64,000 nt of DNA from an uncultured Clostridia bacterium (GTDB lineage Bacteria; Bacillota; Clostridia; Christensenellales; UBA1242). Made by a program: the position numbers and the translations under genes. The notes below the pieces were generated by a model. It ran no database searches. It was given only the letters and a program-made list of their open reading frames with translations, and was not told where the DNA came from. Positions 7,864 to 56,444 of the stretch are shown piece after piece (position 1 is the first letter of the stretch; each line of letters opens with the position of its first letter). The stretch covers positions 9,934-73,933 of the forward strand of contig CALWEM010000027.1 of the NCBI GenBank assembly GCA_944377315.1, read 5' to 3'.

Positions 7864-9135
7864 TCATTCTGTGTATTCAAAAGTTATATCTTTGATTATC
7901 ACAGTGTCGCCGTCTTTCATACCCTTTTCAAGAAGCATATCAATGACGCCCATCTCTTTCAATCTTGTTTGAAAATATGCAAAAGACCTTGGGTCAGAAA
8001 TGATTACTCCGCGTGCCAAGTTCTCAATTCTTCCACCAGAAACTTCAAAACTGCCATCGTCTGTTCTTCTGATTTCAATGTTTTGAACATCCTTTTTGTC
8101 AAAATCGAAATCTTCCACTTCAAGTGGTGGCTTTTTTGGTATTTTTTTCAAATTCTCAAGAATTTTTTTCTTCAACTCCTCAACACCGCGATATGAAATC
8201 GATGAAAGCAAAATATAGTCCTTTATTTTAAATTTTTCTTCAAATTTTTCGAGTTTTTCTTTCAATTCTTCATCATCAATTAAATCACACTTTGAAAAAA
8301 CAGCAATTTGTTTGACATCTTTCAAAGTTTCGCGATATTTTTTGAGTTCATCATTAATGACAATGTAATCATTGAGAAAATCACGCCCTTCACTTTCGGA
8401 AATATCGATGAGATGAACAAGAAGTCGCACTCGTTCCACGTGTTTGAGAAAATAGTGCCCAAGCCCAAGTCCTTCACTTGCTCCTTCGATAAGCCCCGGG
8501 ATGTCGGCAACCACATATGTTTCTCCCAAAACTTCCACAACACCCAAATTTGGATATATGGTTGTGAATGGATAGTTTGCAATTTTTGGATTGGCGTTTG
8601 ATATCACTGAAAGAAGTGTGCTTTTGCCAACATTTGGAAAACCAATAAGTCCAACATCAGCAATCGTTTTGAGTTCCAATATAACTTCTTTTCCTTTCAC
8701 TGTTTCGCCTGTTTGTGAAAAGGATGGTGCTTGCTTGATGGAAGATTTGAAATAGTTGTTGCCGTGTCCACCCGCTCCACCTTTGAGCGCTCTGAATTCT
8801 TTGCCATTTTCACTCAAATCTGCGATGATTTTGTCGTTCTCTGGATTTATCAAAACAGTGCCAGTTGGAACCAATATGATTTCATTTTTTCCACTTTTTC
8901 CTGTTTGATTTTTGCTTGAACCATCACTGCCATTCTCTGCCACAAATTTTTTCTTGAAGCGGAAAGAATACAATGTGTTAAGTTCGTCTGTCGCTTTGAA
9001 AATGATGTCGCCACCTTTCCCGCCGTCACCACCATCTGGTCCGCCATTTGCCGTTTGTGCATTACGCAAAAAAGACACGGCTCCTTTCCCGCCGTTTCCT
9101 GCTTTTATGGAAATTTTGACTCTATCTAAAAACAT
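7864..9135 (-). CDS. obg: GTPase Obg
   Basis: [23 protein letters not shown]-terminus, G1 GFPNVGKST, and a C-terminal TGS-like domain. Start set to the ATG at 9135 with a GGAGAG RBS. Confidence 0.95.
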
Positions 9136-9163
9136 ATCTCTCCTTTTTATATTTTGCTCGGTT

Positions 9164-9276
9164 GTGCGAGAAAACGCACGCACACCTTATAAACTTTAAC
9201 CAAAAAACACTCTTTTTTGTGCGTGCTGAAAACTTCGTTTTCAAATTTTTGCTCGCAAAAATTTATTTTCTCGCAC
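9164..9276. repeat. Three-hairpin closed-stem element E1
   Basis: Outer stem GTGCGAGAAAA (9164-9174) pairs with TTTTCTCGCAC (9266-9276). It encloses hairpins GCACGCACA..TGTGCGTGC, TGAAAAC-TTC-GTTTTCA and AATTTTTGC-TC-GCAAAAATT. Confidence 0.65.
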
Positions 9277-15836: not shown

Positions 15837-18800
15837 TTACCAATTAAATTTTTCATTGCAATCATCGCAACTTGAAGGGTCAAACACATTGTCAGCTGAT
15901 GAAGAATGACAACAAGTTAATGTTGTTTCATTGCTTCCGCCATTGAATGTGTAACTTGTGGTGTAGCAATAACTGATTGACGCATTTTCAACAAACCCCA
16001 CAAAACCAGCAATCATTCTCGCTGACTCATCAAGTGTTTGGTCAGTTTCCAAATCGCCAGTTTCATCGCCAGTTTCATCGCCAGTTTCATTTTGTGTTTC
16101 AGGCAAATATTCTTTTCCAATAATTTCTGAACGCGAACTTGAGACAGTCACATTTCCGCCTTCAATATAACCTGCAAATCCAGCAATATAGTATGGCAAA
16201 TTTTTTGTCGAATAAGCAATATGGATACCACTATCACTTGAATTTGAATTATTTGTGAAATCATTACCAGGCACTCCACTAGACACTTCGAATTTGTATG
16301 TCAAATTATTATTGTATGCGTCCAAGTTATATCTCAACAATAATTCCTTGTTATATCCAACATCACCACTACTTGCATCACCACTACTTACAGGCTTAAT
16401 TACTACGGTTGGTTGAGTGGTCGTTGTTTGTTGTGTGTCTTCACCATCTCCATTGTTTTCACCGCCTTCTTCACAAATGACAAAAATGTGATTTTCTGTG
16501 AATCCATTTTTATTGTAATTCACACTGCAACTATAATTATTCACATTTTTAAAAGTGGAATTAACTGCGTTCCCAACAACACCGCCAACCTTGCTGAACC
16601 CCGACACTGAACCACTGACCAAGTTGAGATTTTTTATGGTCGCGCCGTTAACACAGCCAAAAAGACCGATATTTTCCAAATTTTCAGCGGAAATACTCAA
16701 ATCGTATATTGAATAATATTGTCCGTCATAAATCCCATCAAAAGGAATTAGTTTTGTGCCAATAGGGACAAATTCTTTTGTTAGATATATGTCACAGGTT
16801 TGTTTGAATCTCATATTTTTAATATTATATCCTTCACCGCCATCAGTTTTTGTTTGCATCAATTGCATTGCCAGCCAATATAAATTTTCTTCACTCTTGA
16901 TTTCATAATAACCATTTTTGAATTCAGGCACACAAACAGTATAATTTCCTATTTCCATATAATTAGCCGTAAAAGTAAGAGTTATTTCTTGCTCATTTGA
17001 TGCAATGTCGTTAATAAGTTGGAAATCAAATTTTTCTCTATAAGTTAAAACTGGGTCCTTGTTTGAATCTGTGTCATCAGTTAAAACTGTGACATTGCTT
17101 GAATCTGTGTCATTGCTTGAAACTGTGATTTTATAACTTACACTTCCCAATTTGTGAAAGGAAATCTGGGTTTCATTACTACCATTACTATTTTCAACAT
17201 ATGCGTAACCCAAAAAATCAAAACTGATATGAGAATACGACTTAACAATAAAGGTTTTATTGCCTGTGCTTTCATCACCATTATTGACATTATTATTATA
17301 ATTCTCTCCATTAATATTGATTGAACCAACCAAACCGACACCACCGTCAGTCGTAAATTCCAACTTAATTGTTTTCAATGAGTAATAGGAAAGAAGATAG
17401 GCGGTTTTTTCTGTTCCATATATTATTATCGAATTTTCATCAGATTTAGTTCCACCATTTATAAGATAAATAAGTGGAGTTGAATCTGTCTTGCTATCTT
17501 CAATTTTGCTATTAATTGAGTCAACACTTATACTTTCATCAATTTCGTCACTTTTTGCAAAAACAAACTGATCTGATGAATCTCCATTTGCATAATAACC
17601 CTTTTGAGGAGTTTTGGTTATGTTCACAATATCTGTCAATTTTTTTTCAACATAATCGTCAAGACTTGAATTTATCTCATACTCATTCTCGCATCGCTTA
17701 CTATCATCAACCGAATCGCCATATTCAAACTTATTTGGCAAGAACACTCGAATGACGATTGTTTTGTTAGTTTCATCAATATAGGCATAAAACATTGAAA
17801 TCTCTTCATTATCAGTTACATTATCACTTTTGACTGCTATAATTGTTTCTCCGCCCAAATCATCTTTCGTATAACAATTAGAAGTCTTCACAGAAGCATC
17901 GTATATATCAACGATTTTAAAGGTGTAAGTCATAATTTTGCCACCAAAACTGTCATCTTTGTTGTCAGGATTTTCATAGCCCGGATCTACACTCTTTAGA
18001 TATTCTTTATCAACACTGATTGGAAATTTTTTGATGGTAACATTGATTTCACAATCATATTTATAATTGTCATTAAATAGTTTTTCAAGGTTCAATGAAA
18101 AATCTGTAACTTTTGTATTCTTGTCTAGAGTATAATAGAAAATTTGATTTCCACTTATACCCACTGGTGCATTAGAAAAAGTAATATCCACATAATTTTG
18201 ACCATCCATAGGGAAATTAGTTCCACCACCCCAATAGAAAGAAGCTTCATTATCTTTCCCTTTGTTCAAAAGTGATACCCCGTCAGTCTTAATATCACAC
18301 ACAAAATATGAATAATAAACTTCAAAGAAGTCGGCTTGCGTGTCGCTATCAGGAATTAAACTGACTTCTGGTATTGATACTTTCTTCTTTTCTCCTTCAA
18401 TATTTTCCCACAAATCTAGATTTCCATTGTTACTGGTTCTTGCATACTGCCTACTTTCATAGCCATAAGTTACAAACTTTGTTGTATTATTTTCTCCATC
18501 CACTCCATCCACAATTGTTGTCAAATTGGTGGTGATTTTATATTGATAACGCGAGAACAAAAGAATAAATTTATTTTCATTAAAAGGTGTTGTATTAAAG
18601 TAGCTAAAATCAATTGTGTAAGTCATTGTCGCATCACTATTAATACTACTATGATTAAAGACTCCACTTCCTTCATATAAAACATCAACAATTTTGTTTC
18701 CGTCTATTTTGTTTCCGACTATATTATCTTCTCTAAACACTCCAAAAAGTTCATAATTTTCATTCATTTTAATCGTCAGAACAATTTTCGAATTTGCTGA

Positions 18801-20714
18801 CACATTTTCAATTTTTAATTCTCCTGACTCGGAATTTACACTGTAAGTTGCACCGTCAACTTGACAATTTAAAATATAGCCACCCGCATTACCATATTCC
18901 CAATCATTTCCATCTAATATAAAATCATCCATATAAGCATTTTTAAAAACATAGTCTTTTTTTGCTAATCCACATTTAGCAACATATGTTGCATTATTAT
19001 TGTAACAAGTGGAAACATTTAAACCATTACTATCAGTAATCCGATCAGCAGTTTCTTCTTCACCATTATAAATACCTAAATATGTATATTTTCCGCTGTT
19101 ATTACTTGACACTTTAAATAACTCATTGGCAAATGGGTCTTTCGTAAAATGATATGTGTTTAATTTATTTGCATCATTGCCTTTCACATCACTATATGAG
19201 TTATCACTGGTTTTGACACTAACATAGTAACCATCATTATAATATTCAAATTTATAGTCAGTTGAACCATTCTCATTCACTTCATTCATAAGCCCAATAT
19301 CAATGGATGCAACAAAATATGACAATGTTATCATATCATCGCCATCAAAATTATTATAAGTTGAACAAATCGACATTGTTGTCCAATTCTTATCTAAATT
19401 GGAACCATATTTGTCACCCCAATTTATGTCTCCCAAACTACTTGTTATGTTGGTTTTTGATAAAATACTGTTTGAAGATGCTACTATTAATCCACTTGTT
19501 TCAGCATTCCCGTTATACAAAGGAAGATTTTTGTAGTTTGTTCGAATACAATCAGAAATTGTTAAAGATGAAAATGTTTCTACATTTCCAGCATAACAAC
19601 CAACTTGACCATTATTTATATTATTTTGAGTATAATTTGAATTGGCACTTACACAGCTTATTATTTTGTCATCATTACTGTTTAATCCAATTCCTCTACG
19701 AACAACATAACCTATGATTCCACCAACATATTTACTTGTGTTGTTTGTCCCTAATTGTCCATAGTTAACGCACCTAGTAATCTCTAAATCAGAATTCCTA
19801 ACAAGAACTAAACCAGATTCTACTGATGTTTCACCAACAATCCCGCCAACGTGTCCATTTCCATTTATTGAGCCATAATTGACACAATCAATAACTTTTG
19901 TATAAAAATCAGCAGCAGCTACAATAGAACTATCACCAATTGTAACTTCACCGACAATTCCGCCTTGCCCATTGTCATCGGTTGGTTCTAGATTAACCAT
20001 ATTAACACAACCTTCAATTGTGACCCCACCATAACTTGTAACCAAAATGCCAGCATTCGCTGCTGAAGCAACTCCGTCTGGTGCAACAAAAGCACAATTT
20101 TTGATTTCTGATGCTTTTGCTGTGCAAATAAAGCCACCTCTTTTCTCATCATTTTTAACTATTGGTGCTTCAAACACGATGTCATATATTTTTGCATCTG
20201 AAATATGTTCAAAAAGATAACCCCATTCCTCTAAATTGATTCCTCTGATTCCTGCCACATTTCCGTCTGCTTCGATAGTGCCATTCCCAATCAAACAGCC
20301 AGTGAAAGTTGTATCTTTTGAAAGATCCCAATAGTGTGCAGACATATCAAGATCGGCATTAACCAAAAAGACGCCATCTGGGTCTTTAATGATATATGCC
20401 AACTCTTCTGGCTTTGTCACAATATACGGACTATCTTGTGTGCCTTTACCTACATCAGGCTTTTTTGCATTACTTGACCATTTCCCGCTTGGCGTGGCGG
20501 TTGATGTCATATCGTCAGAGCCTTCACTTGATGTTTCACCACTCTCACTGTCACCACTCTCGGTTTGATTTTCATCTTCAACCGTGTAACTTGGATTTGT
20601 GTCCAAACTGTATGCATTAATTAAATTTGCACCGCACAAAGAAAAAACTGCCGTGAACAAAACGCACATTAAAGATATCAGAAATTTTTTTGATAAATTT
20701 TTCCCTAATCTCAT
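15837..20714 (-). CDS. Giant secreted protein with GLUG-type repeats at both ends
   Basis: 1625 aa with a signal peptide (MRLGKNLSKKFLISLMCVLFTAVFSLCGA). Repeated GG[IV][IV]G...C[VI]N.G motifs at N- and C-termini, an N/S/T/D-rich centre, and a Cys-rich tail CCHSSS...CDDCNEKFNW. Confidence 0.85.
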   Translation of the reverse strand: MRLGKNLSKKFLISLMCVLFTAVFSLCGANLINAYSLDTNPSYTVEDENQTESGDSESGETSSEGSDDMTSTATPSGKWSSNAKKPDVGKGTQDSPYIVTKPEELAYIIKDPDGVFLVNADLDMSAHYWDLSKDTTFTGCLIGNGTIEADGNVAGIRGINLEEWGYLFEHISDAKIYDIVFEAPIVKNDEKRGGFICTAKASEIKNCAFVAPDGVASAANAGILVTSYGGVTIEGCVNMVNLEPTDDNGQGGIVGEVTIGDSSIVAAADFYTKVIDCVNYGSINGNGHVGGIVGETSVESGLVLVRNSDLEITRCVNYGQLGTNNTSKYVGGIIGYVVRRGIGLNSNDDKIISCVSANSNYTQNNINNGQVGCYAGNVETFSSLTISDCIRTNYKNLPLYNGNAETSGLIVASSNSILSKTNITSSLGDINWGDKYGSNLDKNWTTMSICSTYNNFDGDDMITLSYFVASIDIGLMNEVNENGSTDYKFEYYNDGYYVSVKTSDNSYSDVKGNDANKLNTYHFTKDPFANELFKVSSNNSGKYTYLGIYNGEEETADRITDSNGLNVSTCYNNNATYVAKCGLAKKDYVFKNAYMDDFILDGNDWEYGNAGGYILNCQVDGATYSVNSESGELKIENVSANSKIVLTIKMNENYELFGVFREDNIVGNKIDGNKIVDVLYEGSGVFNHSSINSDATMTYTIDFSYFNTTPFNENKFILLFSRYQYKITTNLTTIVDGVDGENNTTKFVTYGYESRQYARTSNNGNLDLWENIEGEKKKVSIPEVSLIPDSDTQADFFEVYYSYFVCDIKTDGVSLLNKGKDNEASFYWGGGTNFPMDGQNYVDITFSNAPVGISGNQIFYYTLDKNTKVTDFSLNLEKLFNDNYKYDCEINVTIKKFPISVDKEYLKSVDPGYENPDNKDDSFGGKIMTYTFKIVDIYDASVKTSNCYTKDDLGGETIIAVKSDNVTDNEEISMFYAYIDETNKTIVIRVFLPNKFEYGDSVDDSKRCENEYEINSSLDDYVEKKLTDIVNITKTPQKGYYANGDSSDQFVFAKSDEIDESISVDSINSKIEDSKTDSTPLIYLINGGTKSDENSIIIYGTEKTAYLLSYYSLKTIKLEFTTDGGVGLVGSININGENYNNNVNNGDESTGNKTFIVKSYSHISFDFLGYAYVENSNGSNETQISFHKLGSVSYKITVSSNDTDSSNVTVLTDDTDSNKDPVLTYREKFDFQLINDIASNEQEITLTFTANYMEIGNYTVCVPEFKNGYYEIKSEENLYWLAMQLMQTKTDGGEGYNIKNMRFKQTCDIYLTKEFVPIGTKLIPFDGIYDGQYYSIYDLSISAENLENIGLFGCVNGATIKNLNLVSGSVSGFSKVGGVVGNAVNSTFKNVNNYSCSVNYNKNGFTENHIFVICEEGGENNGDGEDTQQTTTTQPTVVIKPVSSGDASSGDVGYNKELLLRYNLDAYNNNLTYKFEVSSGVPGNDFTNNSNSSDSGIHIAYSTKNLPYYIAGFAGYIEGGNVTVSSSRSEIIGKEYLPETQNETGDETGDETGDLETDQTLDESARMIAGFVGFVENASISYCYTTSYTFNGGSNETTLTCCHSSSADNVFDPSSCDDCNEKFNW
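16053..16088 (-). repeat. In-frame 12-nt tandem repeat (3 copies) encoding GDET
   Basis: ATCGCCAGTTTC x3 on the plus strand, giving GDETGDETGDETGD in the protein. Confidence 0.9.
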
Positions 20715-20723
20715 CTTGTTATT

Positions 20724-20753
20724 ATTTTAACTATTTTTGCAAAAAAATGTCAA
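20724..20753 (-). promoter_or_regulatory. Sigma-A-like promoter of the 1625-aa protein gene
   Basis: Minus strand TTGACA-18 nt-TAAAAT. The -10 box ends 9 nt before the ATG and no SD is present. Confidence 0.6.
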
Positions 20754-20871
20754 ATTATTTTAATAATTTTTTAATTTATTTTTATTTTATTAATATTTAT
20801 ATTAATATCTATTTTTTCACTAATTATTTTCTTATATTTTTTGGGTTTTTAAGCATTTTTTATATAAAAGT

Positions 20872-20968
20872 GGCGAAGAAGTTGCGTGCGTGTATATCAC
20901 GCACGCGGAAGCACTTTAAAGTGCTTCAAAATTTTAAAACACGCGTTTTAAAATTTTACTTCTTCGCC
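20872..20968. repeat. Three-hairpin closed-stem element E4
   Basis: Outer stem GGCGAAGAAGT/ACTTCTTCGCC encloses GCGTGCGTG-TATAT-CACGCACGC, GAAGCACTTTAAAGTGCTTC and AAAATTTTAAAAC-ACGC-GTTTTAAAATTTT. It abuts the recN stop. Confidence 0.75.
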
Positions 20969-22623
20969 TATCTTTTCAACAACTGTTTGGAATGTTCAAT
21001 TGCGGTGTCGGACACCACTTCGCCACCATCAATAAGTCTGGCAATCTCCAAAACGACATCATCGCCGTCAATAATTTCAGATTGAGATATTGTTTCGCCA
21101 TTTTCAGTCATTTTGGAAACCAAAATAAACTCATCCCCTTTGCTTGCCACAACCGGTGTGTGAGTTATGCAAATCACTTGGACAAAGTCGCTTATTTTCT
21201 CCAACTTTTGAGCCACTTTGCCAGCAGTCTGTCCACTGATACCAGAGTCAATTTCATCAAAGACAACCGTGGCAACATTTTCCTTGTCAAGCATAATTGA
21301 TTTGAATGCAAGGAGCAACCTTGATAATTCTCCGCCCGAAGCGGTTTTTGACAAGTCTTTCATATCTTGACCGACATTGGCAGAAAAGACAAATTTGACA
21401 ACATCAAAACCTTTTCTTCCAATCTCGCCTTTTTCAAAATTAACTTTAAAATTTGTGCCTTTCATTTGAAGATCGCAAAGTTCATTTTTAACTTTTTCTT
21501 CCAAAATTTTGGCTTTTTCTTGACGCAAAGACGAGAGTTGTCTGCACATCTCTTCCAAAGTTTTGAGAATGGCGTTTTTTTCATTCGTGAGTTTTGTCAG
21601 CAAAAATTCGCTGTTTTCAAGATTGCTCAACTTTTCCTTTGTTTCGTCAAGAAATTTCAAAACTTCTTCGACAGAATTACCATATTTTCTTTTCAAACCT
21701 TTGATTTCATCAAGACGCTTGTCAATTCGTTCAAGTTCGTTTTCATCAAAATCGGTGTTTTTGACAATATTATCCAAAATTTCAGCGACATCTTTAATTT
21801 CATAATAGCAAGAGTTCAATCGTTCCTGACAATCGGCAATATCTTGAAAATCAGCAAAAGAAGAGAGAAGATTTTTTGCTTCAAAAAGTTGCGTTGTCAC
21901 TGCTTCCACGCCGTCATCAAGTTTATTGACAGCACTTCCCACCTTTTCACAAATATTCTCACTTGAAGAAATAAATTTGAAACGCTCTTTGAGCTCTTCT
22001 TCTTCCCCAACAACAAGATTAGCACTTTCGATTTCTCTGATTTGAAATTCCAAAATTTCTTTCAGACGATTTCTTTCAGCATCATCACCGCCAAGCGACT
22101 TAATTTTTCCATTAATCTCACTCAACTTGTCGCATTCAATGTTTATCTTTTCCAAAATTGAAAAGGCATCTTTGCCAATAAACTTGTCCAAAATTGAGAG
22201 ATGATTATTTTCATTGACAAGTCCGACATTGTCGTGCTGACCACAAAAATCCATCAAATTTGAAGTTATTTCCTTCAAGGTTTTCAAAACCACCAAAACA
22301 CCATTGACGCGTATTGTCGATTTTCCGTCAGTGTTTAGCGTGCGAGATATGATGAGTTCATCTTCGAAATCAATGTCTTGCTCTTTCAAAATTTTTTTTG
22401 TTTCCAAAGATAAGTTTTCAAAAACAGCCTCCACCCGCATCATATTTTCCTTGGTGCGAATAAGTGTTCGGTCTTGTTTTGCCCCCAAAACAAAACTCAA
22501 GGCATCAATCAAAATACTTTTTCCAGCACCTGACTGACCCAAAATCACATTGAAGCCTTTTTTGAAATTTATCTCACTTTTTTTGATGAGAGCAAGATTT
22601 GAAATAGAAAGAGAAGAAAGCAT
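20968..22623 (-). CDS. recN: DNA repair protein RecN
   Basis: 551 aa with Walker A GQSGAGKS, coiled-coil middle, signature SGGELSR and Walker B VVFDEID. Confidence 0.96.
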   Translation of the reverse strand: MLSSLSISNLALIKKSEINFKKGFNVILGQSGAGKSILIDALSFVLGAKQDRTLIRTKENMMRVEAVFENLSLETKKILKEQDIDFEDELIISRTLNTDGKSTIRVNGVLVVLKTLKEITSNLMDFCGQHDNVGLVNENNHLSILDKFIGKDAFSILEKINIECDKLSEINGKIKSLGGDDAERNRLKEILEFQIREIESANLVVGEEEELKERFKFISSSENICEKVGSAVNKLDDGVEAVTTQLFEAKNLLSSFADFQDIADCQERLNSCYYEIKDVAEILDNIVKNTDFDENELERIDKRLDEIKGLKRKYGNSVEEVLKFLDETKEKLSNLENSEFLLTKLTNEKNAILKTLEEMCRQLSSLRQEKAKILEEKVKNELCDLQMKGTNFKVNFEKGEIGRKGFDVVKFVFSANVGQDMKDLSKTASGGELSRLLLAFKSIMLDKENVATVVFDEIDSGISGQTAGKVAQKLEKISDFVQVICITHTPVVASKGDEFILVSKMTENGETISQSEIIDGDDVVLEIARLIDGGEVVSDTAIEHSKQLLKR

Positions 22624-24528: not shown

Positions 24529-25650
24529 CTAACTCACCCGCTTTTTGATATCATTATACACTTCAATGATGATTTCTCCTGCTCGCACAACTTCTTCTTC
24601 GGTCATATACGCATTGAAACTCACCCGACAACTCGAAACAATATCTTCTTTTTTTATGCCAATCTCTTCCAAAACACGATTACCCTGTTTTTTTGATGAG
24701 CAAGCACTGCCCAGCCCAACAATAACACCATTCTCTTCAAGTGCGTGAAGGATTGTTTCGCCTTTGACACCTTTGAATATTAAACTTTCAATATATGGCG
24801 ACCCCTTGAAATCCAAAACTTCAATTCCACTTTCTTCAAGAAGTGTTTGGTTAAACTTTTCTTTTAGTTTGGTCACATTTTCAAAATTCTTTTTCACATC
24901 AATTTTTTCAAGTGCGGTTTTAAGTGCCATAATGGCTGGCACATTTTCCGTGCCTGAACGAAGTCCATACTCTTGACCACCACCATCAACAATATTTTTA
25001 AGGATGGACAATTTGCGAACATAAAGCCCACCCACCCCTTTTGGTCCGTGAAATTTGTGTGCACTGAAAGTTAGCATATCAATTTTCAAATCTTCCACTT
25101 GAAAAGGTATTTTCATAAACGCTTGAACAGCATCAATATGAAGAAGAGCGCGTGGAGCAAACTTATCTCTTATTGCCGATATTTTCTTTATGTCATTCAC
25201 TGCACCTGTTTCATTGCTGACAAAAATTATGCTTATAAGCCTTGTCTTCTCATTGAGTTTACTCTTCAAATCTTCCAAGTCCACTCGTCCATCTTTGCCA
25301 AGCTTCGCAAAATGCACATTTTTCCCTTGTTGTGCCAAATTCTTGGCAACATTCAAAACAGACGGATGTTCACCAGAAGAAAAAACATATTCATTATCTC
25401 CACCACGCATTGAACCTTTGATGGCAAGATTATTACTTTCAGTTGCACCACCAGTGAAGATAATTGTTCCTTCACAAGCACCCAATTTTTTCAAAATATA
25501 ATTTCTGGTTTCGTTTAAAGCAGAAAACACCTGTGTGCTCTTTCTTGTGACAGCAGACGGATTGAAATATTCTTGACACGCATAAAAAGAATATGTTTTC
25601 ACACATTCTTCAAACATTTTGGTTGTTCCAGCATTGTCAAGAAATATCAT
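24529..25650 (-). CDS. Cysteine desulfurase (NifS/IscS/NifZ family), paired with thiI
   Basis: PLP lysine motif SAHKFHGPKG and C-terminal active-site loop GSACSS. Start set to the ATG at 25650 after GAAGGAG. Confidence 0.92.
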   Translation of the reverse strand: MIFLDNAGTTKMFEECVKTYSFYACQEYFNPSAVTRKSTQVFSALNETRNYILKKLGACEGTIIFTGGATESNNLAIKGSMRGGDNEYVFSSGEHPSVLNVAKNLAQQGKNVHFAKLGKDGRVDLEDLKSKLNEKTRLISIIFVSNETGAVNDIKKISAIRDKFAPRALLHIDAVQAFMKIPFQVEDLKIDMLTFSAHKFHGPKGVGGLYVRKLSILKNIVDGGGQEYGLRSGTENVPAIMALKTALEKIDVKKNFENVTKLKEKFNQTLLEESGIEVLDFKGSPYIESLIFKGVKGETILHALEENGVIVGLGSACSSKKQGNRVLEEIGIKKEDIVSSCRVSFNAYMTEEEVVRAGEIIIEVYNDIKKRVS

Positions 25651-25680
25651 ATTTTCTCCTTCTGTTTGTTGCTTGGACAC

Positions 25681-25776
25681 GCGGACTTATGAAAAATTTT
25701 GCACCCAGCAAAATTTTTTCGGGTTTCGCAGGAGCGAAATCCGCTCGCACCGCGATGGGTGCGAGAATAAGTCCGC
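25681..25776. repeat. Three-hairpin closed-stem element E2
   Basis: Outer stem GCGGACTTAT/ATAAGTCCGC encloses GAAAAATTTTGC-ACCCA-GCAAAATTTTTTC, GGGTTTCGC-AGGA-GCGAAATCC and CTCGCACC-GCGATG-GGTGCGAG. It lies 2 nt after the pheT stop. Confidence 0.75.
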
Positions 25777-29612: not shown

Positions 29613-30491
29613 ATGGAAAAAAGTCGTTATTTTCAAATTGAAGTGAAAAATATTGTCGAAAAAGTCAATGTTTATCTTTTCTTACGCAAAAACGGATTTT
29701 CGGAACATTATCTTAAAAATTTACGCCATAAAAGTGACGCGATAAGAGTGAACTATGTGACAGCAAACGCAAAAACCGTGCTTAAAAATGGCGATATCTT
29801 GGAAATTGACAAAAACCCAAGCCCTTCAACCAGCATAAAAAAAGTGGAAAAAGAAATTGAAGTTGTCTTTGAAGACGAAAACTACCTTTTGGTTAACAAA
29901 CCACCACTTCTTGCCACAATGCCGACAAAATCGCATTTTGATGACAATCTTGCTGGTCGTGTGGTGAATTATGTTGATGACGAAAATTTCACTTTGCGAG
30001 TGTTTAATCGCCTTGACAAAGATGCTTCAGGGCTTGTGCTTATCTCAAAAGATGCCATCACTCCACAATTTACTGAAATTTTGGAAAAGGAATATTATGC
30101 CATTTGTAACGGCGTTTTGAAAGAAGAAGTGGTGGTCGAAAAGCCCATACTCACACGAATGGAAAATGGTGTTAACATACTAAAACGCGTCATTTCTATC
30201 TTTGGTCAATACGCCAAAACTCGATTTGTTCCCATCAAAAATTGGAAGAACTATACTCTTGTGAAAGCAGAAATCACCAAAGGTCGAACTCACCAAATTC
30301 GCCTTCATTCTGCTTCAATTTCACACTCACTCATCGGCGACAAAGTGTATGGCATTGAAGATGAGTTCTCTCACGCATATCTTCATCTCAAAAAAATTTC
30401 TTTTAGGCATAATTTAACTGGCAAAACTTTTGAATTTGAAGTTGATTTTCCAGATGATTTCAAAAAATTTTTCAATGAAAAAAGACCATAA
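29613..30491 (+). CDS. RluA-family pseudouridine synthase with N-terminal S4-like domain
   Basis: 292 aa with RLDKDASGLVL catalytic Asp motif and GRTHQIRLH. Confidence 0.88.
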   Translation: MEKSRYFQIEVKNIVEKVNVYLFLRKNGFSEHYLKNLRHKSDAIRVNYVTANAKTVLKNGDILEIDKNPSPSTSIKKVEKEIEVVFEDENYLLVNKPPLLATMPTKSHFDDNLAGRVVNYVDDENFTLRVFNRLDKDASGLVLISKDAITPQFTEILEKEYYAICNGVLKEEVVVEKPILTRMENGVNILKRVISIFGQYAKTRFVPIKNWKNYTLVKAEITKGRTHQIRLHSASISHSLIGDKVYGIEDEFSHAYLHLKKISFRHNLTGKTFEFEVDFPDDFKKFFNEKRP

Positions 30492-30505
30492 CGGTCTTTT
30501 TCCTT
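30476..30505. terminator. Bidirectional terminator
   Basis: AAAGACC-ATAAC-GGTCTTT flanked by an A run and a T run; lies between convergent genes. Confidence 0.65.
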
Positions 30506-30512
30506 TTGGGAA

Positions 30513-30665
30513 CTATTTAGATTTTCTTGAAGACGATTTTCTTGATGCTTCCTTCCCTGCTTCACAATTTCTTGTTGAAGACTTTGCGGATTTTGTGGAA
30601 GCCTCTCTCCCTGCTTCAGTGTTGGAGCAGTTTTTGCACGCCTTCTCTTTCTTTTTACCAAACAT
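30513..30665 (-). CDS. 50-aa K/S-rich peptide with duplicated NC..EAG[RK]EAS.KS module
   Basis: Strong RBS GGGAGGTAACT before the ATG at 30665. Translates MFGKKKEKACKNCSNTEAGREASTKSAKSSTRNCEAGKEASRKSSSRKSK. The track shows it as the tail of a longer spurious ORF. Confidence 0.55.
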   Translation of the reverse strand: MFGKKKEKACKNCSNTEAGREASTKSAKSSTRNCEAGKEASRKSSSRKSK

Positions 30666-30756
30666 AGTTACCTCCCATTTTTCAAGGAATAATTCCTTGT
30701 TAATTATATTGTTGATAAAATTTTGATTTTTATTCATCAAAAGTGCAAATAAAAAA

Positions 30757-30842
30757 GTGCGAGCAAAAAGTGGACAAAGGATTTGTCCACCCGCCACAAA
30801 AGTGGCACTCACGCAAAAATTTGCGTGAGATTTTGCTCGCAC
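30757..30842. repeat. Three-hairpin closed-stem element E3
   Basis: Outer stem GTGCGAGCAAAA/TTTTGCTCGCAC encloses GTGGACAAA-GGA-TTTGTCCAC, GCCAC-AAAA-GTGGC and CTCACGCAAA-AA-TTTGCGTGAG. On the minus strand it is followed by TTTTTTATTT. Confidence 0.75.
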
Positions 30843-31792: not shown

Positions 31793-34700
31793 TTATTTGC
31801 ACGCCAAGGTGTTGATATTGATGGTCACGCGAACACCCAAGATTTCTTGCATCTTCATTTGCGTGCCAGTTATGCCACCCGCTGAAATGGTTTGAGCATT
31901 GTTTAGATTCGAGCCGACATCGCGTGTCCAATAGAATAGATAACCACCCAAGATATCAGCAACAAGGTCGGAGAACTCGGCTGACAAGTCGCCAAACACG
32001 CTTTGAATTTCACTTTCATTTGACACTATTGCCTGTGTCGGAACATCGGAAGTGGATGTTGTGCCGTTTGCCATTTTGAAATTGGTGACAGTATATGTTT
32101 TTGAATTCAAATAACTCAACTCATCCGACCCCATATATTCTTCACTTGCAATTCCACTGACATTGGTGCTGATTTGAGCATATGCATAACCCTTGCCCAA
32201 GCAATCATTTGCTGTCCAACCGGTTTGAAAGACGCTTGCAAAGACGATTTTTTCACTCACCGCTGTCACATTGCCACTTTCAGTCGCGTAGTTTGATGAA
32301 TAATCCCCAGCAAGAACATATTTCACCGGCTCAACTTTGAACCAACTTCCATTATAGCGAACATATTCATCATTTTTATATGTGTATGCATCATAAGGTT
32401 TTGTTCCATACGCTTCTTGACCATCTAACTTAAAACTAAAATTCGAAAATGTAAAGTCATATGTAATGTCTTCGATATACCACGTATTAAAAACAATATA
32501 AAGTTCTTCATAATTTCCAGAATTAAAAGTAAAACTATTGTCTTGATCAAGGTTATCAAAATATAATTGAGTTTCAGAGTTCTTATCTTGCGTTGGTTTT
32601 TCATATAAAACTTGTAATCTTAACCATTTTGCCATTTCATTACTATATGAACAATTGAAACTAATGGTATAACATTTGTTCGGTTGAACTTGAACTTTTG
32701 TGCCAAAAATACACCCACCGCCCATTTCTATTAAATGAACTCTGTTTACCTTTTCTTCATTGTCATATTCAATAGTCAATGTGCTCTTATCTCCACGATT
32801 TGTATACCTATAGACTTCCCATTGTGTCATATTTTCTTCAAGTTGCTTGGTTGGAAGAGTGTATACATTTCCATTTGTTTCTTCTGCATCTTTCAAACTT
32901 TCAAGTTCACTGATATCACTCTCATTTGTCACCTTACTTTGTGGAAAATAGCCCATTTCAACATACCAGTAGTCATTTTCTTTGTCATATATTGCTTCAT
33001 TTTTTGGAATCCAATGGGCGTGCCAAGAAACACCATCAGTGTATATTTGAATGTTGCTAGCATTTATTGAACCATCCGAAGCAATTGCGGTTGCACCCTC
33101 GCCGTTTTCTTTTTCAAAATAGCCCGCAAAAATGTAGCCAGTTTTGGTTGGCGGTGTCACAGTTTCAATTTTGTTTTGACAATTTTGATCATTATACCAC
33201 GCGTCACCATATTTTAGATAAATATATTTTGGAGATTCATTGTTGTGACTCTCTAAAGTAACTTTATATGTGTTTGGCTCCCATTGAGCATACAATGTCG
33301 TCCTTGAAGTGATGACAATAGTGTTACCTTCGTAATAATGTGTGCCAGTGCCAGAAGATGAAGTTGTCCAGCCGTCTGGCGAATATCCTTGGCGGTCAAT
33401 ATCATTTTTTGCCACTTTGACAGAAGTGTTGTGCAGAACATTTTGTGGTGCAGGATAGTCACTTGACGAGCCATATGAACTGTAGTAATCAAAAACATAC
33501 ACTTCGCTTATGAAAACAAGAATTGTTTTATTTGTTGTTGGCGTCCACTCGACCGTGTATGTGTCATTCTTGCTTCTGAAAATCATATCATAATCAGTCA
33601 AGGTTGGTGTCAAGCCAATTTTCATATAATACACAACATTAAACGAGCCGGTTGACGAAGCACCATTATATAAACTCAAAACCACATTTTTTGTTGATGA
33701 ACTTTGAGATTGATTGACTTGCGCAGATTTTCCCGCATCAATAATGTTGTATGCAATGCTGGAAATAAACGGAAAAGCAACTTTAAGCCCCACCGAATTT
33801 GTGGCATTCAAAGCCTGAAATCTGGCGGTGAATGTGTATGAATTCATTTGCCAATTTGCTTTTAGTGTGACCGTGCTTCCCATTTTGAGTCCCAAGTCTT
33901 TGAAATATTGGGAAGTTATTTTGGTGTCACCATTTGACCAAGATGACAACTGATTTGGCATTGGTCCTTGCTTTGCAAGTGCTGTGCCGAGATTTGTCGC
34001 AGTCCAACCAGTGAAAGAATAGCCAGACCTTGTTGGATTTGGAATATATAATACCGAACCAAAACAAGCATAATTTGTTTGAATTGAAAGCGAGCCAGAA
34101 TTCAATGAATAAGCAATATAGTAAATTAAATCTGCCAAAACGGGTAAACTATGTGAACCAATCATTCGCCAATCAGTTGATGTGCCAGTCGAAATATCCC
34201 AACTTCCATACACATCTGAATCCACATCATAAAATGCTGATGTGTTCCCATTAAGATAAGTGCAACCATCATTACTTGAAGGTCCGTTGCCATATCCAGT
34301 GCTTGAATGTGAAAAATAGCAATTGCTCACACCGCCACAATATCCACCCACAATTGCTCCACCATAAAGTGTGAAATTGCCAGAATTAAAGCAATTGGTA
34401 ATATAGCCACTATCACTATTGCCACAAATACCACCCGCTCGATAGCCAGAAAATGTTCCTGTGTTATAGCAGTTTGAAACCATTCCTTGACTTTCACCAC
34501 AAATTCCACCCATAATTGAGTAACCAGAAATTGCTCCAGTGTTGTAACAATCGTGTATCATCGGTGCGTAAGCACCTGTGGCAGTTGCTCGCCCAACAAT
34601 TCCACCCAGATATTGCAATGTTCCACCATAAATTGTTGCCGTTATCGTGCTTGAGTTGTAACAATGATGTATATATCCAGAGCTGCGGTTTGGAGAATCA

Positions 34701-35317
34701 ATCAAACCACAAATTCCACCAGCAGTCGGCGAATTTGGTTCAGTGACAGTCACACTTCCGCCAGCATTAAAACAGTTATATATTGTTGTCGCAAAATAAT
34801 CTTGACTACCTGCATACCCAACAATCCCACCAACATATCCAAAGCCACTAAAATGACAATCAACAAGTCCAAGGTCGTGAATTGTTGCACCAACGGTATA
34901 GCCAAAAAGTCCGACATTTGAATAACTAACTGTTAAATTTATGCCGGAAATAATATATCCATCTCCGTCATAATAACCAGAAAACGGATTTGTGCTGTTC
35001 CCAATTGGAACATTGAAACTTGAAACGGCAATATTTGCAGTTTGTCTATAATAAGACCTATTGCCAATGCCATTATTAATATTACTTGCAAGTGTGTTTA
35101 AATCACTTGAATTTTGGATTAAATATGGTGAAGAAGATGTGCCAGAACCGGAAAATTGAGAACTTAAATCTTCATTTTCATTTTGCGAATTGTCAAATCC
35201 CACCCCCGATTCAGTTATGGAGATTTGATTGTATATGTCGCCCAACAAAACACCGCCAGTCACCAAAGCGGACACGATGAAAACTATGAAAAACACAACA
35301 ACAAAAAGTTTTTTCAT
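31793..35317 (-). CDS. Giant surface protein A: N-terminal anchor, GLUG-type repeats, Listeria-Bacteroides-type repeats, shared C-terminal module
   Basis: MKKLFVVVFFIVFIVSALV anchor; repeated GGI[VC]G...CYN.G motifs; PTRSGYSFTGWT and PTKTGYIFAGYF repeats; C-terminus paralogous to the 38588..42064 protein. The track N-extension uses TTG and overlaps the -10 box. Confidence 0.85.
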   Translation of the reverse strand: MKKLFVVVFFIVFIVSALVTGGVLLGDIYNQISITESGVGFDNSQNENEDLSSQFSGSGTSSSPYLIQNSSDLNTLASNINNGIGNRSYYRQTANIAVSSFNVPIGNSTNPFSGYYDGDGYIISGINLTVSYSNVGLFGYTVGATIHDLGLVDCHFSGFGYVGGIVGYAGSQDYFATTIYNCFNAGGSVTVTEPNSPTAGGICGLIDSPNRSSGYIHHCYNSSTITATIYGGTLQYLGGIVGRATATGAYAPMIHDCYNTGAISGYSIMGGICGESQGMVSNCYNTGTFSGYRAGGICGNSDSGYITNCFNSGNFTLYGGAIVGGYCGGVSNCYFSHSSTGYGNGPSSNDGCTYLNGNTSAFYDVDSDVYGSWDISTGTSTDWRMIGSHSLPVLADLIYYIAYSLNSGSLSIQTNYACFGSVLYIPNPTRSGYSFTGWTATNLGTALAKQGPMPNQLSSWSNGDTKITSQYFKDLGLKMGSTVTLKANWQMNSYTFTARFQALNATNSVGLKVAFPFISSIAYNIIDAGKSAQVNQSQSSSTKNVVLSLYNGASSTGSFNVVYYMKIGLTPTLTDYDMIFRSKNDTYTVEWTPTTNKTILVFISEVYVFDYYSSYGSSSDYPAPQNVLHNTSVKVAKNDIDRQGYSPDGWTTSSSGTGTHYYEGNTIVITSRTTLYAQWEPNTYKVTLESHNNESPKYIYLKYGDAWYNDQNCQNKIETVTPPTKTGYIFAGYFEKENGEGATAIASDGSINASNIQIYTDGVSWHAHWIPKNEAIYDKENDYWYVEMGYFPQSKVTNESDISELESLKDAEETNGNVYTLPTKQLEENMTQWEVYRYTNRGDKSTLTIEYDNEEKVNRVHLIEMGGGCIFGTKVQVQPNKCYTISFNCSYSNEMAKWLRLQVLYEKPTQDKNSETQLYFDNLDQDNSFTFNSGNYEELYIVFNTWYIEDITYDFTFSNFSFKLDGQEAYGTKPYDAYTYKNDEYVRYNGSWFKVEPVKYVLAGDYSSNYATESGNVTAVSEKIVFASVFQTGWTANDCLGKGYAYAQISTNVSGIASEEYMGSDELSYLNSKTYTVTNFKMANGTTSTSDVPTQAIVSNESEIQSVFGDLSAEFSDLVADILGGYLFYWTRDVGSNLNNAQTISAGGITGTQMKMQEILGVRVTININTLACK

Positions 35318-35404
35318 ATTGATATTATAAATTATTATACAATTTTTTTGCAAACAAATTTATATATATTATCACAAAATTTTTCATAGAGATAACTTTT
35401 ATGC

Positions 35405-38587: not shown

Positions 38588-41500
38588 TTATTCCAAGCAA
38601 ACAAAAGTTTCCACGCAAACAGTGATTCGAACACCCAAAATTTCTGTCATTTTTGCTTGTAGCCCGGTTTTCCCGCCTGCCGATATGCATTCCGCATTAC
38701 CCAAATTTGAGCCAACATCGCGTGTGTAGTAAAGTAAATTTCCGCCCAAAAGGTCAGTGACAAGGTCGGAAAACTTCACTGCATAGTTTCCATCTCCAAA
38801 CACTTCATCCATATCTTCTTTTGATGATAACACACAGCTCAAATCCTTTGGATTTTCCACCACATTTTCTCCATCCGCCGTTTTGAAGTTTTTGATATTC
38901 AAATCCCAATCTATTGTTGTTAAATAATAATCTTCAAGAAAAAGACTAAAATCAACTTCGACATAAAAATCAAGATCCCCATATAAATCTGAATCCAAAT
39001 ATCCTTGTCCAAGCCCCAGTGAATTTTCTGTGACATACATCCAAGGAAGCATATAGACAATGTCTTCGGTGATTGCCATAATTTTTTCATCGTCAACTGC
39101 ATTACCTTCGGTATAATCACCCGAAAGAATGAATCGCACCGGCTCAACAAGATAATATCTTCCTATCTCTTCAACGCTGTCATCTTCCATTACTTCTTCA
39201 CTATTTAATATTATATAAGCATACTCTTCATTATCTAATAAATAAGTATCATATGTGATATTAAAACCAAAAAATAATGACGAATTATATATATCGAAAT
39301 TTGCTCTCTTTTCATCAAGTTCGGCAATTTTAACTTCGTCTTCAAGGCGGGTTTGTGGAATACTTCCCATTTCAAGATACCAATAGCCTTTTTCTTCATC
39401 GAATTTGGCTTCATTCTTGACTTCCCAATGTGCGTATATTGTGGTGTCAGTCGTGGTGAACTCATCACGATTTGTTTGCACCATTCCATATTTGTCCATA
39501 ATCAAAATACCATCTTCTGTGTAATACCCTTCAAAAGTGTAGCCAGTGCGTTTCGGCAATGATGACACATTGAGTGCGGTAAACTTGGTGCCTTCAGTGC
39601 AGTTTTGTGAGAGATAGAAGCCGTCACTATACTTCAAATAAACAACACCAACGCTACTTGTACCGCCACCCATCTCCAAGGTGATTGTGAGAATATCGCT
39701 CTCCCAAACAGCAAACATTGTGACGCTTGCCGGCTCGTTATAGGCACTTGTGAATGTGAAAGATGCTCCCGAAGTGTAAGTTGGCTCGGTGGCAGAACTG
39801 TCCGCTGACCAGCCTTTGAAAACATAGCCCGGACGAGTTGGCACAGTGGAAGTTATTGTCATTGCAGATGATTGCAACGCATTGCCATATTGATTCCAGC
39901 GTTGCAAGCCAGTGGTGTCTTCGCCTGAATATGTCCCGCCATTTCCGTCATATGAAACTGTGACATCACGATTTGAAATGGCGAATAAACTCGCATTCGA
40001 TGATGACGAAATTGATTGACCTGGCAAACTCCCCGTGACTGCCGATCGAGTTCTTCCCCAAGAATAAAACACCCATCCATTTTGGTCATACATATCATCG
40101 ACTTCATCAGCACCCAGAATGACAAACGAACCAGAATGTGGTTGTGAAAAACCGCTTGTTGAGCCATCGTTTTTGCGATAGTAATATTTAGTTTCATATA
40201 TATGTTCATCGGCTTGAATGGCAATAAACATATCGGTGTTCACAGTGATTGTGGTTGTTATGTCAGTTGAAATTGTGACCGGATTTGACAATTGTGAACC
40301 TGCAAAAAGCCTTCCCCATCCACTAAAATAGCCATTTTCGTTCACTTCGCCAGTGAGAGTCACTTGTGTGCCCGCGTCCACCTTGACTTCTTTATATCTT
40401 CCCCGCTCATCTTCCTGCCAAACAGCACTTTCAAAATCGACATCTGGTGAAGAAAACATAAACCACTCATTTTCGTAAACCCGAAGGCTGAATTCTGGCG
40501 GTTGCAAATGTGGAAGCCCATAATTTATGTTTTCATCAATCGCCCAAACACTCTCAAAATCCCAAGGATAAGTCGTGTCCCAATTATCAGCATTTGTATA
40601 CCAACTTTCATCAAATAATGTTTCCTTGGAAAGTGAAATAGTTTTAAACGCGGAATTAATAGATCCTTGTTCTTCAACTGAATAATAATAAAACGTTCTG
40701 TTGTATGGATTCATTGAACCAAATAACGAATCATTAAAAAAATCATATGGTGAAAGATAAATATAGTTAATATGCTGAATTGCTGGCACAAAACAGCAAT
40801 ATACTGTGCCAATTCCCATAGCCCCGTAACCTCCTCCATCCGGGGTGTTTTTTCTCCCAACAAACGCATACGAAAAAGAATTTTTTGCAAAAGGTGTCAC
40901 TCCACAAAGACCACCATTTGTGGTAGCAGTTTCAGCATATGAAACATATACATACAAATTTCCAATATTATAGCAGTTTTGTATTCCACCAATTCTAAAA
41001 TCATCACGAGTAGGATCATAACTGGAATTTACAAATCCAACTATTCCGCCACCATAATAGCCATAGATATGTATATTGCCAATATTATAACAATTTACAA
41101 TAAAGAAAGTGCAACCAGTGCTTGTATTAGCAATAAAACGCCCAGCAATCCCTCCAACATATTCGCTTGCGAAAATTTCACCTTCATTATAGCATTCTAA
41201 AACTAAATCAGCAGTTAAAGAAAAACCAGTACTACTTGTCTTAACATATCCAACAATTCCGCCAACATTTAAGTGTTGACTTTCATAACTCACATCCAAA
41301 TAACTATCATCATTTATACTTCCGTGATTTGAACAATAAGATATTGAACGTTCACGTCTAGATGGAATAAATTTCCCCACAATACCACCAGTGCAAGAAA
41401 GTTCGTCAGCAGCAAAACCAGATTGTGGACCAATTATATCGCAATAGTTATGGCAATTATAAATCGTTGTGCTTGATGCATAGCCAACAACTGCTCCAAA

Positions 41501-42064
41501 ATAACCAACACCCCCACCTAGCAACGGCGAAGTGTTGTTGTCATCCTTTATCACCACATTCTTTATTGTTGCACCCACCGTATAGCCAAAAAGACCTTTA
41601 TATGTTCCTTGGAATTGATAACCGCCTAACCCAGAAATTGCGAAACCACCGCCATCATATGTCCCACGAAAAGGATTTCCCGGCGTTTCTGATTGAGATG
41701 AGCCAATCGGCTCCCACATATGTGCCGACAAATCAAGGTCAGCAGTTTGAATGAAAGTTGCTTTTTGCCACCACACATTCGCGTCATCACCATTTTCAGA
41801 ATTTACTCTGTATGAAAGCCACGCCAAATGCTGTGGAGTTTCAATGTATGCATAATATGTCGTCCCAATCATTGTCCTTTTGGTTGGCACTGCCCAATTT
41901 CCAGTGTCTGTCCAAAAGCCCGTTGCAGTCGAAGTGATTTCATTGTTTTGGAATTGGTCTTTTTTGTCATCATCAAAAAGAAAGAATGAGCCAAAAATTA
42001 ACAAGGCAATCAATATTGCTGAAAAAACACATATAGAAAGGATTTTCGATAATTTTTTTGTCAT
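38588..42064 (-). CDS. Giant surface protein B, paralog of 31793..35317
   Basis: 1158 aa with MTKKLSKILSICVFSAILIALLIF anchor, GLUG-type repeats, PTRPGYVFKGWS and PKRTGYTFEGYY repeats, and C-terminus YYTRDVGSNLGN...LGVRITV. GGAGAGAG RBS. Confidence 0.88.
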   Translation of the reverse strand: MTKKLSKILSICVFSAILIALLIFGSFFLFDDDKKDQFQNNEITSTATGFWTDTGNWAVPTKRTMIGTTYYAYIETPQHLAWLSYRVNSENGDDANVWWQKATFIQTADLDLSAHMWEPIGSSQSETPGNPFRGTYDGGGFAISGLGGYQFQGTYKGLFGYTVGATIKNVVIKDDNNTSPLLGGGVGYFGAVVGYASSTTIYNCHNYCDIIGPQSGFAADELSCTGGIVGKFIPSRRERSISYCSNHGSINDDSYLDVSYESQHLNVGGIVGYVKTSSTGFSLTADLVLECYNEGEIFASEYVGGIAGRFIANTSTGCTFFIVNCYNIGNIHIYGYYGGGIVGFVNSSYDPTRDDFRIGGIQNCYNIGNLYVYVSYAETATTNGGLCGVTPFAKNSFSYAFVGRKNTPDGGGYGAMGIGTVYCCFVPAIQHINYIYLSPYDFFNDSLFGSMNPYNRTFYYYSVEEQGSINSAFKTISLSKETLFDESWYTNADNWDTTYPWDFESVWAIDENINYGLPHLQPPEFSLRVYENEWFMFSSPDVDFESAVWQEDERGRYKEVKVDAGTQVTLTGEVNENGYFSGWGRLFAGSQLSNPVTISTDITTTITVNTDMFIAIQADEHIYETKYYYRKNDGSTSGFSQPHSGSFVILGADEVDDMYDQNGWVFYSWGRTRSAVTGSLPGQSISSSSNASLFAISNRDVTVSYDGNGGTYSGEDTTGLQRWNQYGNALQSSAMTITSTVPTRPGYVFKGWSADSSATEPTYTSGASFTFTSAYNEPASVTMFAVWESDILTITLEMGGGTSSVGVVYLKYSDGFYLSQNCTEGTKFTALNVSSLPKRTGYTFEGYYTEDGILIMDKYGMVQTNRDEFTTTDTTIYAHWEVKNEAKFDEEKGYWYLEMGSIPQTRLEDEVKIAELDEKRANFDIYNSSLFFGFNITYDTYLLDNEEYAYIILNSEEVMEDDSVEEIGRYYLVEPVRFILSGDYTEGNAVDDEKIMAITEDIVYMLPWMYVTENSLGLGQGYLDSDLYGDLDFYVEVDFSLFLEDYYLTTIDWDLNIKNFKTADGENVVENPKDLSCVLSSKEDMDEVFGDGNYAVKFSDLVTDLLGGNLLYYTRDVGSNLGNAECISAGGKTGLQAKMTEILGVRITVCVETFVCLE

Positions 42065-42143: not shown

Positions 42144-42275
42144 CTTTTTTGTGGTAGTTTTGAAAAATTTTTAAAGAAAAATTTAATAAAAAAAGAGAGA
42201 AAGTTTTTGCCTAAAAACCACTTCTTATTCTCTCTCAAAAATATATTTTTATGAATAGCAATTTTTTAATAACAC

Positions 42276-56403: not shown

Positions 56404-56444
56404 GGTTCCGAAGACCATTGTGATATCCACTTCACTATGGGTGC
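56404..56444 (-). pseudogene. tRNA-Arg(UCG) 5'-half copy 3
   Basis: As copy 2. Confidence 0.9.

Follow-up and report, generated by a model that had tools for sequence, protein, structure and literature searches.

REP sequences affect mRNA stability, and Liang, Rudd and Deutscher reportedly found in 2015 that REPs located within ~15 nt of a stop codon stall ribosomes. In integrons, the larger attC sites can have branched central parts. An individual REP is a 20-40-nt imperfect palindrome with a 5' GTAG-type tetranucleotide, and REPs have been reported to affect termination (PMC2817692). In C. cellulolyticum, cistrons are protected by single intergenic stem-loops at their 3' ends, which fold with -14 to -24 kcal/mol and set the operon transcript ratios in proportion to that energy (PMC4423207), and orthologous clostridial stem-loops are conserved between species (PMC4423207, PMC9045158).

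The window analysed here, a stretch of 64 kb taken in its entirety, covers a housekeeping region, with a GC content of 35.7%, in the genome of an uncultured spore-former of the Clostridia. Sporulation genes are present, as are a large SRP RNA and a T-box leader (both detected with Rfam), and among named relatives Candidatus Caccovivens is the nearest (66% identity for RecN and 78% for Obg). Nearly all of the genes in the window are found on the minus strand. Four elements, E1 to E4, fall in its first 31 kb; the genes that adjoin them are nth, recN, pheT and a DUF1292-like gene, as identified in the initial annotation, and the other neighbours are obg and iscS. Each copy contains three palindromic hairpins inside a 10-12-bp inverted repeat, and would fold, as a single strand, into a compact four-way junction. 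We would put the chances at about even that E1-E4 are lineage-specific REP/BIME- or MITE-like dispersed nested palindromes which, once transcribed, would form a very stable 3'-end or intercistronic structure.

The distances between the elements and the neighbouring stop codons are as previously described, with E1 lying over the last nth codons and E2, E3 and E4 beginning 0, 2 and 17 nt from the stop. E2 (20872-20968, 97 nt, family polarity +) is antisense to recN (20968-22623, minus strand; NCBIfam TIGR00634, E 4e-138), whose stop codon it abuts, sharing the G of the TAG. Its outer stem of 11 bp (20872-20882 and 20958-20968) encloses a GC-rich hairpin (20883-20907), a middle hairpin that is a perfect 20-nt palindrome (20908-20927) and an AT-rich hairpin (20928-20957). 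E1 (9164-9276, 113 nt, family polarity +) lies in the spacer between nth and obg, with an outer stem, GTGCGAGAAAA, that extends over the last four nth codons and a 33-nt loop in its third hairpin. E3 (25681-25776, 96 nt, family polarity -, sense to the genes) fills the pheT-iscS spacer inside an operon. Finally, E4 (30757-30842, 86 nt, family polarity +), which follows the DUF1292-like gene, has a 12-bp outer stem, GTGCGAGCAAAA. Public gene calls run through the elements (7864-9183, 24529-25680 and 30513-30842, all on the minus strand): a GTG within E1 is taken as the start of a 439-aa obg, a GTG at the E3 edge as that of a 383-aa iscS, and E4 is covered by a called ORF of 109 aa. The extended obg and iscS calls and the 109-aa ORF are likely artefacts of stop-free GC-rich palindromes, which mislead gene callers, and terminator predictors miss the elements altogether.

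When the elements were refolded, all four adopted the one fold originally proposed for them, in which an outer stem of 10-12 bp surrounds exactly three hairpins with 0-3 unpaired junction bases. Both strands of E1-E4 fold alike, and DNA parameters reproduce the RNA folds. The RNA minimum free energies (MFEs) of E1-E4 range from -35.7 to -55.2 kcal/mol, with z = -5 to -12 against 200 dinucleotide shuffles, none of which equalled the fold energy of the elements. When 110-nt segments were folded blindly along the whole window (mean -16, sd 5.8), the first three ranks in stability were taken by E3, E2 and E4, at -52 to -56 kcal/mol, and an unbiased inverted-repeat and fold scan has E4, E3 and E2 at the top, followed by the tRNA-Ser region and then by E1. 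A combinatorial descriptor, consisting of a perfect outer stem of at least 8 bp and three adjacent perfect hairpins, has two matches in the window (E2 and E4) and two in 247 kb from close relatives, and none in 20 window shuffles or in 828 kb of distant pheT loci; E1 and E3 are missed only because of the large (33-nt) loop and G.U pairs. Since an energy-threshold scan of all loci was swamped by high-GC distant loci, this descriptor and covariance models were used instead. Neither the folds nor their frequency are reproduced by shuffled sequences, whether as dinucleotide shuffles or with the descriptor.

The low copy number seen would suit a reading of the elements as chance palindromes or as an assembly artefact. 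However, this reading is refuted by the fold statistics, by independent samples and by orthologues, and has next to no probability. E2 is identical in two independent metagenome samples (L087 and L090), and is therefore not an assembly artefact. A 4-nt deletion is found in L088 (2300-2392, corresponding to 20872-20968 in the window), where it affects the 3' arm of the GC-rich hairpin of E2 and shortens this hairpin from 9 to 6 bp with no compensation. Coverage of that contig is only 2.9x, and the deletion may be an error or a real polymorphism.

The elements are related in sequence as well as in shape. The word GTGCGAG/CTCGCAC, previously named as one that recurs among them, is indeed enriched in the window, with 11 occurrences compared to ~2.3 expected, and 6 of the 11 are inside E1, E3 and E4. 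The four copies share 26 7-mers, compared to 4.6 in structure- and composition-preserving shuffles, and five 7-mers are present in at least three copies (0.03 expected). A covariance model (R1) was trained only on the pheT-iscS elements of three other species (L001, L100 and L004) and used to scan 437 kb, comprising the window and 21 related loci. It detected E2 (46.8 bits, E 2e-7), E3 (30.5 bits), E1 (29.5 bits), the L102 orthologue of E1 (25.3 bits) and E4 (22.0 bits), and at E<10 it found nothing beyond those five and its own training elements, the latter on both strands; a model from other species thus finds exactly E1-E4 and one orthologue. The reciprocal model (R2), built from the five R1 matches, recovers the elements of the other species and scores E4 at 55.8 bits. 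With filters off, its only matches in the window are E1-E4, and a search of 828 kb of distant loci gave none. In a filters-off covariance search, the 11 known members all reach at least 23.9 bits, and the next match scores 17.7. MAFFT alignments of the window copies and orthologues were out of register, and alignment based on the covariance models and a helix-by-helix reading were used instead. The earlier suggestion of a structured dispersed repeat is supported by the 7-mers and the reciprocal covariance models. The models also give the family a polarity, from the GC-rich hairpin through the middle hairpin to the AT-rich hairpin, which is sense to the genes at the E3 site and antisense at E1, E2, E4 and an extra copy in L102, i.e., at four of five sites.

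These comparisons bear on an alternative that we regard as rather unlikely, in which the elements are not repeat copies at all, but dedicated RNA cis-elements, each having evolved at its own site into a compound terminator or an intercistronic stabiliser. The shared words would then represent convergence, with GC-rich stems present for stability and AAAATTTT-type palindromes derived from an AT-rich genome. However, the sequence relatedness between sites is far above that in structure-matched shuffles, models trained at one site in other species find the other sites, and the polarity at E3 is inverted compared to E1, E2, E4 and the extra L102 copy.

Synteny around recN and pheT is conserved in the relatives, whose loci are designated by L numbers. 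The E3 site (pheT-iscS) has an element in the window, L001/L091, L093, L100 and L004. The same site contains an unstructured 75-nt spacer in L002-type loci, 30 nt in L005, a single plain hairpin in L007-L010 and L012, and overlapping genes in L013-L016. At the E4 site, elements are found in the window, in L091/L093 (L091 1589-1679) and in L100 (1602-1696), and plain hairpin and U-tract terminators in L002, L004 and L005. The E1 site (nth-obg) has an element in the window and in the sister species L102 (8490-8603), with spacers of 52 and 18 nt in L103 and L104, respectively. After recN, at the E2 site, only the window species has an element; L001, L002, L003, L005 and L006 have plain terminators. 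Finally, the extra copy is found only in L102 (178-252), and the window has a plain terminator alone after the homologous SHOCT-domain gene. This site-by-site presence and absence indicates that the family has been gained and lost on a species time scale within one genus-level group, which is a group of uncultured gut Clostridia related to Candidatus Caccovivens. The location of the elements at sites where relatives have ordinary terminators or hairpins is a point in favour of evolution in place.

Relatives of recN were sought in order to date the origin of E2, and none was found between 100% and 77% identity. The locus is rearranged in the closest sister, L102 (obg 92%), which therefore provides no E2 orthologue for comparison. 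The idea that the outer stem of E2 is homologous to the recN terminator stem of L001, AAGAAG/CTTCTT, was dropped, as the positions differ and it is unprovable. The rearrangement in L102 is local (L102 1-400, compared to 20700-20968 and 42230-42830 in the window): the gene for a 1625-aa surface protein, together with its conserved promoter, is located after the SHOCT-domain gene, not after recN, and L102 lacks four genes that separate the 1625-aa and SDR genes in the window. The 1625-aa gene (15837-20714) is one of three very large minus-strand genes in the window, along with those at 31793-35353 and 38588-42064 (1186 and 1158 aa), all highly variable among relatives and probably encoding surface proteins. 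GLUG motifs and/or the Listeria-Bacteroides repeat (Flg_new) are found in the 1186- and 1158-aa genes. The 1625-aa product has weak alignments to large proteins of the relatives, which match the 1186-aa product too. A phage-like cluster (P22-type portal, holins) is located a few kb after recN in L091 (14627-21656), L094, L098 and L100, and is absent from the matching part of the window.

Where orthologues exist, base pairs have changed on both sides. In an alignment of E3 orthologues from three species this applies to 6 of 36 pairs, compared to 1.9 in shuffles, of which 1 in 500 gave as many as 6, and to 0-1 in slid controls. When the window is compared to L102, a U-A pair in the outer stem of E1 is replaced by C-G; the 5' change is a synonymous GGT to GGC substitution in the nth frame, matched by an A to G substitution in the far arm, and the hairpins also have paired changes. 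To judge from these alignments, pairing is preserved through compensatory substitutions. Orthologues that persist and co-vary would be expected of RNA elements that evolved in place. REP palindromes likewise keep their pairing via complementary mutations (PMC2817692). Moreover, template switching between the arms of a palindrome can yield such paired changes without RNA-level selection.

On the minus strand, the base of the E4 closing stem, GCUCGCAC, is directly followed on its 3' side by a U tract, UUUUUUAUUU (30747-30756), and the base of the E2 closing stem, CUUCGCC, by a weaker U-rich tail, ACUUUUAUAU (20862-20871). E1 and E3 have no U tract, with 0-2 U in the next 10 nt on the transcribed strand. 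The initial annotation assigned the only clear U tract to E3, but on the minus strand it is clear at E4, weaker at E2 and absent at E1 and E3. Promoter-like sites follow E2 and E4, which take the place of plain terminators in relatives. E1 and E3 lie inside operons, with the RBS of obg or iscS ~20 nt further on, as would be anticipated for elements that are read through. The promoter-like site after E2 (TTGACA-18-TAAAAT, 20724-20753, minus strand), assigned to the 1625-aa gene and conserved in L005 and L102, places E2 at the end of the argR-recN transcription unit, and no further hairpin separates E2 from this promoter. Ordinary hairpin and U-tract terminators are also in use in this genome, for example at 15824-15797, 15043-15017 and 42307-42286.

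The previous statement that the elements are not ordinary terminators is therefore too strong. E4, and less clearly E2, combine a GC-rich closing stem with a U tract at the terminator positions of relatives, and look like terminators in which the loop has been replaced by three hairpins. Their closing stems, like those of E1 and E3, enclose 64-91 nt forming three hairpins, compared to 3-8 nt in a terminator loop, and the whole elements were not called in a terminator consensus scan. The restriction of U tracts to the ends of transcription units again favours evolution in place. In L091 and L100, however, the element immediately follows an ordinary and working-looking hairpin and U-tract terminator, which argues against it, and the extra L102 copy precedes such a terminator. 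The element is thus not always the terminator, and may be little transcribed at those sites.

Every copy is within or adjoins a transcription unit, and from their positions inside or at the end of such units we infer that the working form is the transcript. With folding energies of -36 to -55 kcal/mol, the elements are about two to three times as stable as the intercistronic stem-loops of C. cellulolyticum, and a junction of this kind would be a block to 3'->5' exonucleases and an obstacle to ribosomes and RNases. A role as an mRNA 3' stabiliser is plausible. E4, and more weakly E2, would act through closing stem and U tract as an intrinsic terminator with a branched "loop", while E1 and E3, which have no U tract, would be a read-through barrier or a processing boundary, by which the amounts of the upstream and downstream cistrons are uncoupled. 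The elements are probably extra-strong barriers at transcript ends or between genes.

The cloverleaf-like topology and the location between cistrons would suit the earlier suggestion of tRNA-like processing or punctuation signals, or a reading of the elements as independently made small RNAs, cut in either case by RNase P/Z or another RNase. This is very unlikely. ARAGORN and the Rfam tRNA model find nothing at the elements, even at E<=10, and in the whole window ARAGORN and Rfam detect only the two real tRNAs. The helices are perfect and 8-13 bp in length, compared to the 7/4/5/5-bp arms with D and T loops of a tRNA; no loop resembles a D- or T-loop, no other tRNA motifs are present and the loop sequences are not conserved. 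No promoter is located ahead of the elements, their orientation is not fixed (antisense polarity at four of five sites), and in L091 and L100 the element comes after an ordinary terminator.

Two other structured features were observed in the window. Between tRNA-Arg (55965-56039) and tRNA-Ser (56799-56888), the region at 55999-56669 (minus strand) consists of ~3.3 tandem copies of a ~201-bp unit that are 83-98% identical. Each unit contains the first ~41 nt of the tRNA-Arg(TCG) gene followed by ~160 nt with an inverted repeat and a terminator-like hairpin, CCCCAAAAAATCAATATTTTTGGGG, and the whole tRNA is present only in the last copy. It is possible that these units are integration scars or expressed tRNA-half-like RNAs. 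In addition, a CAAGGAA(N2-4)TTCCTTG hairpin at 30662-30700 is located just upstream of the RBS of a small ORF (30383-30661). This hairpin and a TATAAT-like box are conserved in several species (window, L002, L004 and L005), and it may represent a conserved leader or operator.

Other findings argue against a role in RNA alone. MFEs differ little between the sense and antisense strands, the latter giving the better fold for E3, and the G.U pairs in 11 elements number 7 sense and 3 antisense; neither G.U counts nor MFEs show a strand preference among these 11. Self-complementary even-length loops are found in 5 of 17 cases (1.07 expected; 4 when the L091 and L100 hairpins, which are orthologous, are taken as one case), and perfect DNA palindromes account for four of the hairpins, which points to DNA-level genesis or maintenance of the palindromes. 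The working form might accordingly be DNA itself, a single-stranded or cruciform site for a structure-specific protein (a Y1/RAYT-like transposase, a recombinase or a junction-binding protein) or for template switching between the arms, with any RNA effects incidental. Besides the palindromes, equal folding of the strands under RNA and DNA parameters, the occurrence of both orientations, gain and loss between close species, the location of some copies outside an obvious transcript and the precedent of REP/BIME (PMC2817692) all suit this proposal. Nevertheless, we consider it fairly improbable. No such enzyme is encoded in the 64 kb or in the flanks of the relatives, where transposase, integrase and reverse transcriptase genes were all absent; a conserved end motif such as GTAG is missing, and inspection by eye of the 15-nt flanks of 11 elements revealed no target-site duplication. 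Furthermore, pairing of the outer stem requires a single strand, and all copies lie within a transcription unit or adjoin one.

The outer arms provide some indication of how copies may arise. In the extra L102 copy, the 5' outer arm is the conserved coding end CTCTTGTGA, which is present in the window without an element, and the 3' arm, TCATCACAAG, is its exact complement. The nth coding end in relatives lacking E1 is similar to the 5' arm of E1, differing at several positions. Arms on host coding ends fit in-situ recruitment, or copying that templates the closing arm on the flank, and do not fit a classical transposon with fixed ends. A 5' arm derived from pre-existing coding sequence in L102 178-252, and an E1 arm that covers the nth end, are also what evolution in place would produce. 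The L102 copy further suggests a more speculative and quite doubtful possibility, namely a self-renewing four-way-junction module whose three-hairpin core is planted at a gene 3' end, locked by a newly made arm complementary to the upstream host sequence, whatever that is, and read as operon punctuation. The arm would be made via fold-back or template-switch copying or by a structure-specific enzyme, and the junction would be read by a structure-specific factor, either RNase III-type or junction-binding.

If the reading of E1-E4 as dispersed, transcribed nested palindromes is confirmed, they would constitute a topologically distinct class of small structured bacterial repeat, the closed three-hairpin four-way junction, from a gut Clostridia group about which little is known. 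Single loci provide a natural series that extends from no spacer through a plain hairpin or terminator to a branched junction, and this series could be used to test the effect of extra transcript-end structure on termination, on the decay of mRNA and on the relative expression of adjacent genes.

Searches of existing collections gave no described equivalent. E1-E4 match no Rfam 15 family at the gathering threshold, and a permissive Rfam scan of E2 and E3 gave nothing below E 0.5. A blastn search with E2 found no match in plasmid and phage collections, and a full-text literature search for a four-way-junction or cloverleaf intergenic repeat found no described equivalent. The initial annotation had set the elements apart from BOX, REP, ERIC and attC. 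For attC this holds, as core motifs and bulges are absent by eye against the consensus; BOX, REP and ERIC were compared through their described features. Like the elements, attC sites follow a gene and are defined more by structure than by sequence. However, the elements have neither R''/R' core sites (RYYYAAC/GTTRRRY, judged by eye) nor extrahelical bases, no integrase or cassette array is present, and core housekeeping genes flank the elements. Organellar hairpin repeats, including mitochondrial GC clusters, double-hairpin elements and the repetitive hairpin-forming elements of sponges, are also GC-enriched, structure-conserved and sequence-variable palindromic islands that invade AT-rich spacers (PMC2800124). 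They belong to a different genetic system, and have one or two hairpins with no closed three-hairpin junction.

MITEs such as Correia/NEMIS, ERIC, RUP and BOX resemble the elements in their length (~80-115 bp) and terminal inverted repeat, in their location in intergenic regions and sometimes over gene ends, in their presence or absence among relatives and in the stable fold of their transcripts (PMC2229807, PMC10969869). MITEs form one long hairpin, whereas the elements form a four-way junction with one or two outer arms that are host coding sequence, and have no target-site duplication and no cognate IS. The copies are not near-identical; their relatedness is significant only for words and covariance models, and no IS was seen. 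The REP/BIME sequences of the Proteobacteria, which are mobilised by RAYT, are likewise short GC-enriched extragenic palindromes at gene 3' ends, occur in both orientations, are species-specific and dynamic, and keep their palindromes through complementary mutations. The proximity of REPs to stop codons also has a parallel in E1-E3, which are 0-2 nt from the stop or over it. However, a REP is one imperfect hairpin and a BIME an open string of alternating REPs with no outer-stem lock, while the elements have a Clostridia host, three different hairpins and much lower sequence conservation between copies. The GTAG motif is absent, the outer arms starting with GTGCGAG, GGCGAAG or GCGGAC. REPs number more than 100 copies per genome and have a cognate RAYT gene; the 64-kb window contains four copies of the elements, and no RAYT/Y1 transposase is found among the annotated genes of the window and the flanks.

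Clostridial terminators and intercistronic stem-loops, finally, which serve in selective RNA processing and stabilisation or as internal terminators, are similar in being located right after a stop codon, in the GC-rich closing stem, in the U tract at E4 and E2, and in occupying the same sites, which in relatives have plain terminators or hairpins. They are, however, single hairpins of about -14 to -24 kcal/mol with loops of 3-8 nt, whereas the copies described here are related in sequence across unrelated operons and are sometimes located beside an ordinary terminator. The elements are best described as resembling REP/BIME and MITEs in lifestyle, and terminators or intercistronic stabilisers in position and likely effect. 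What sets the family apart from all of these is its closed three-hairpin four-way junction, maintained with low sequence conservation.
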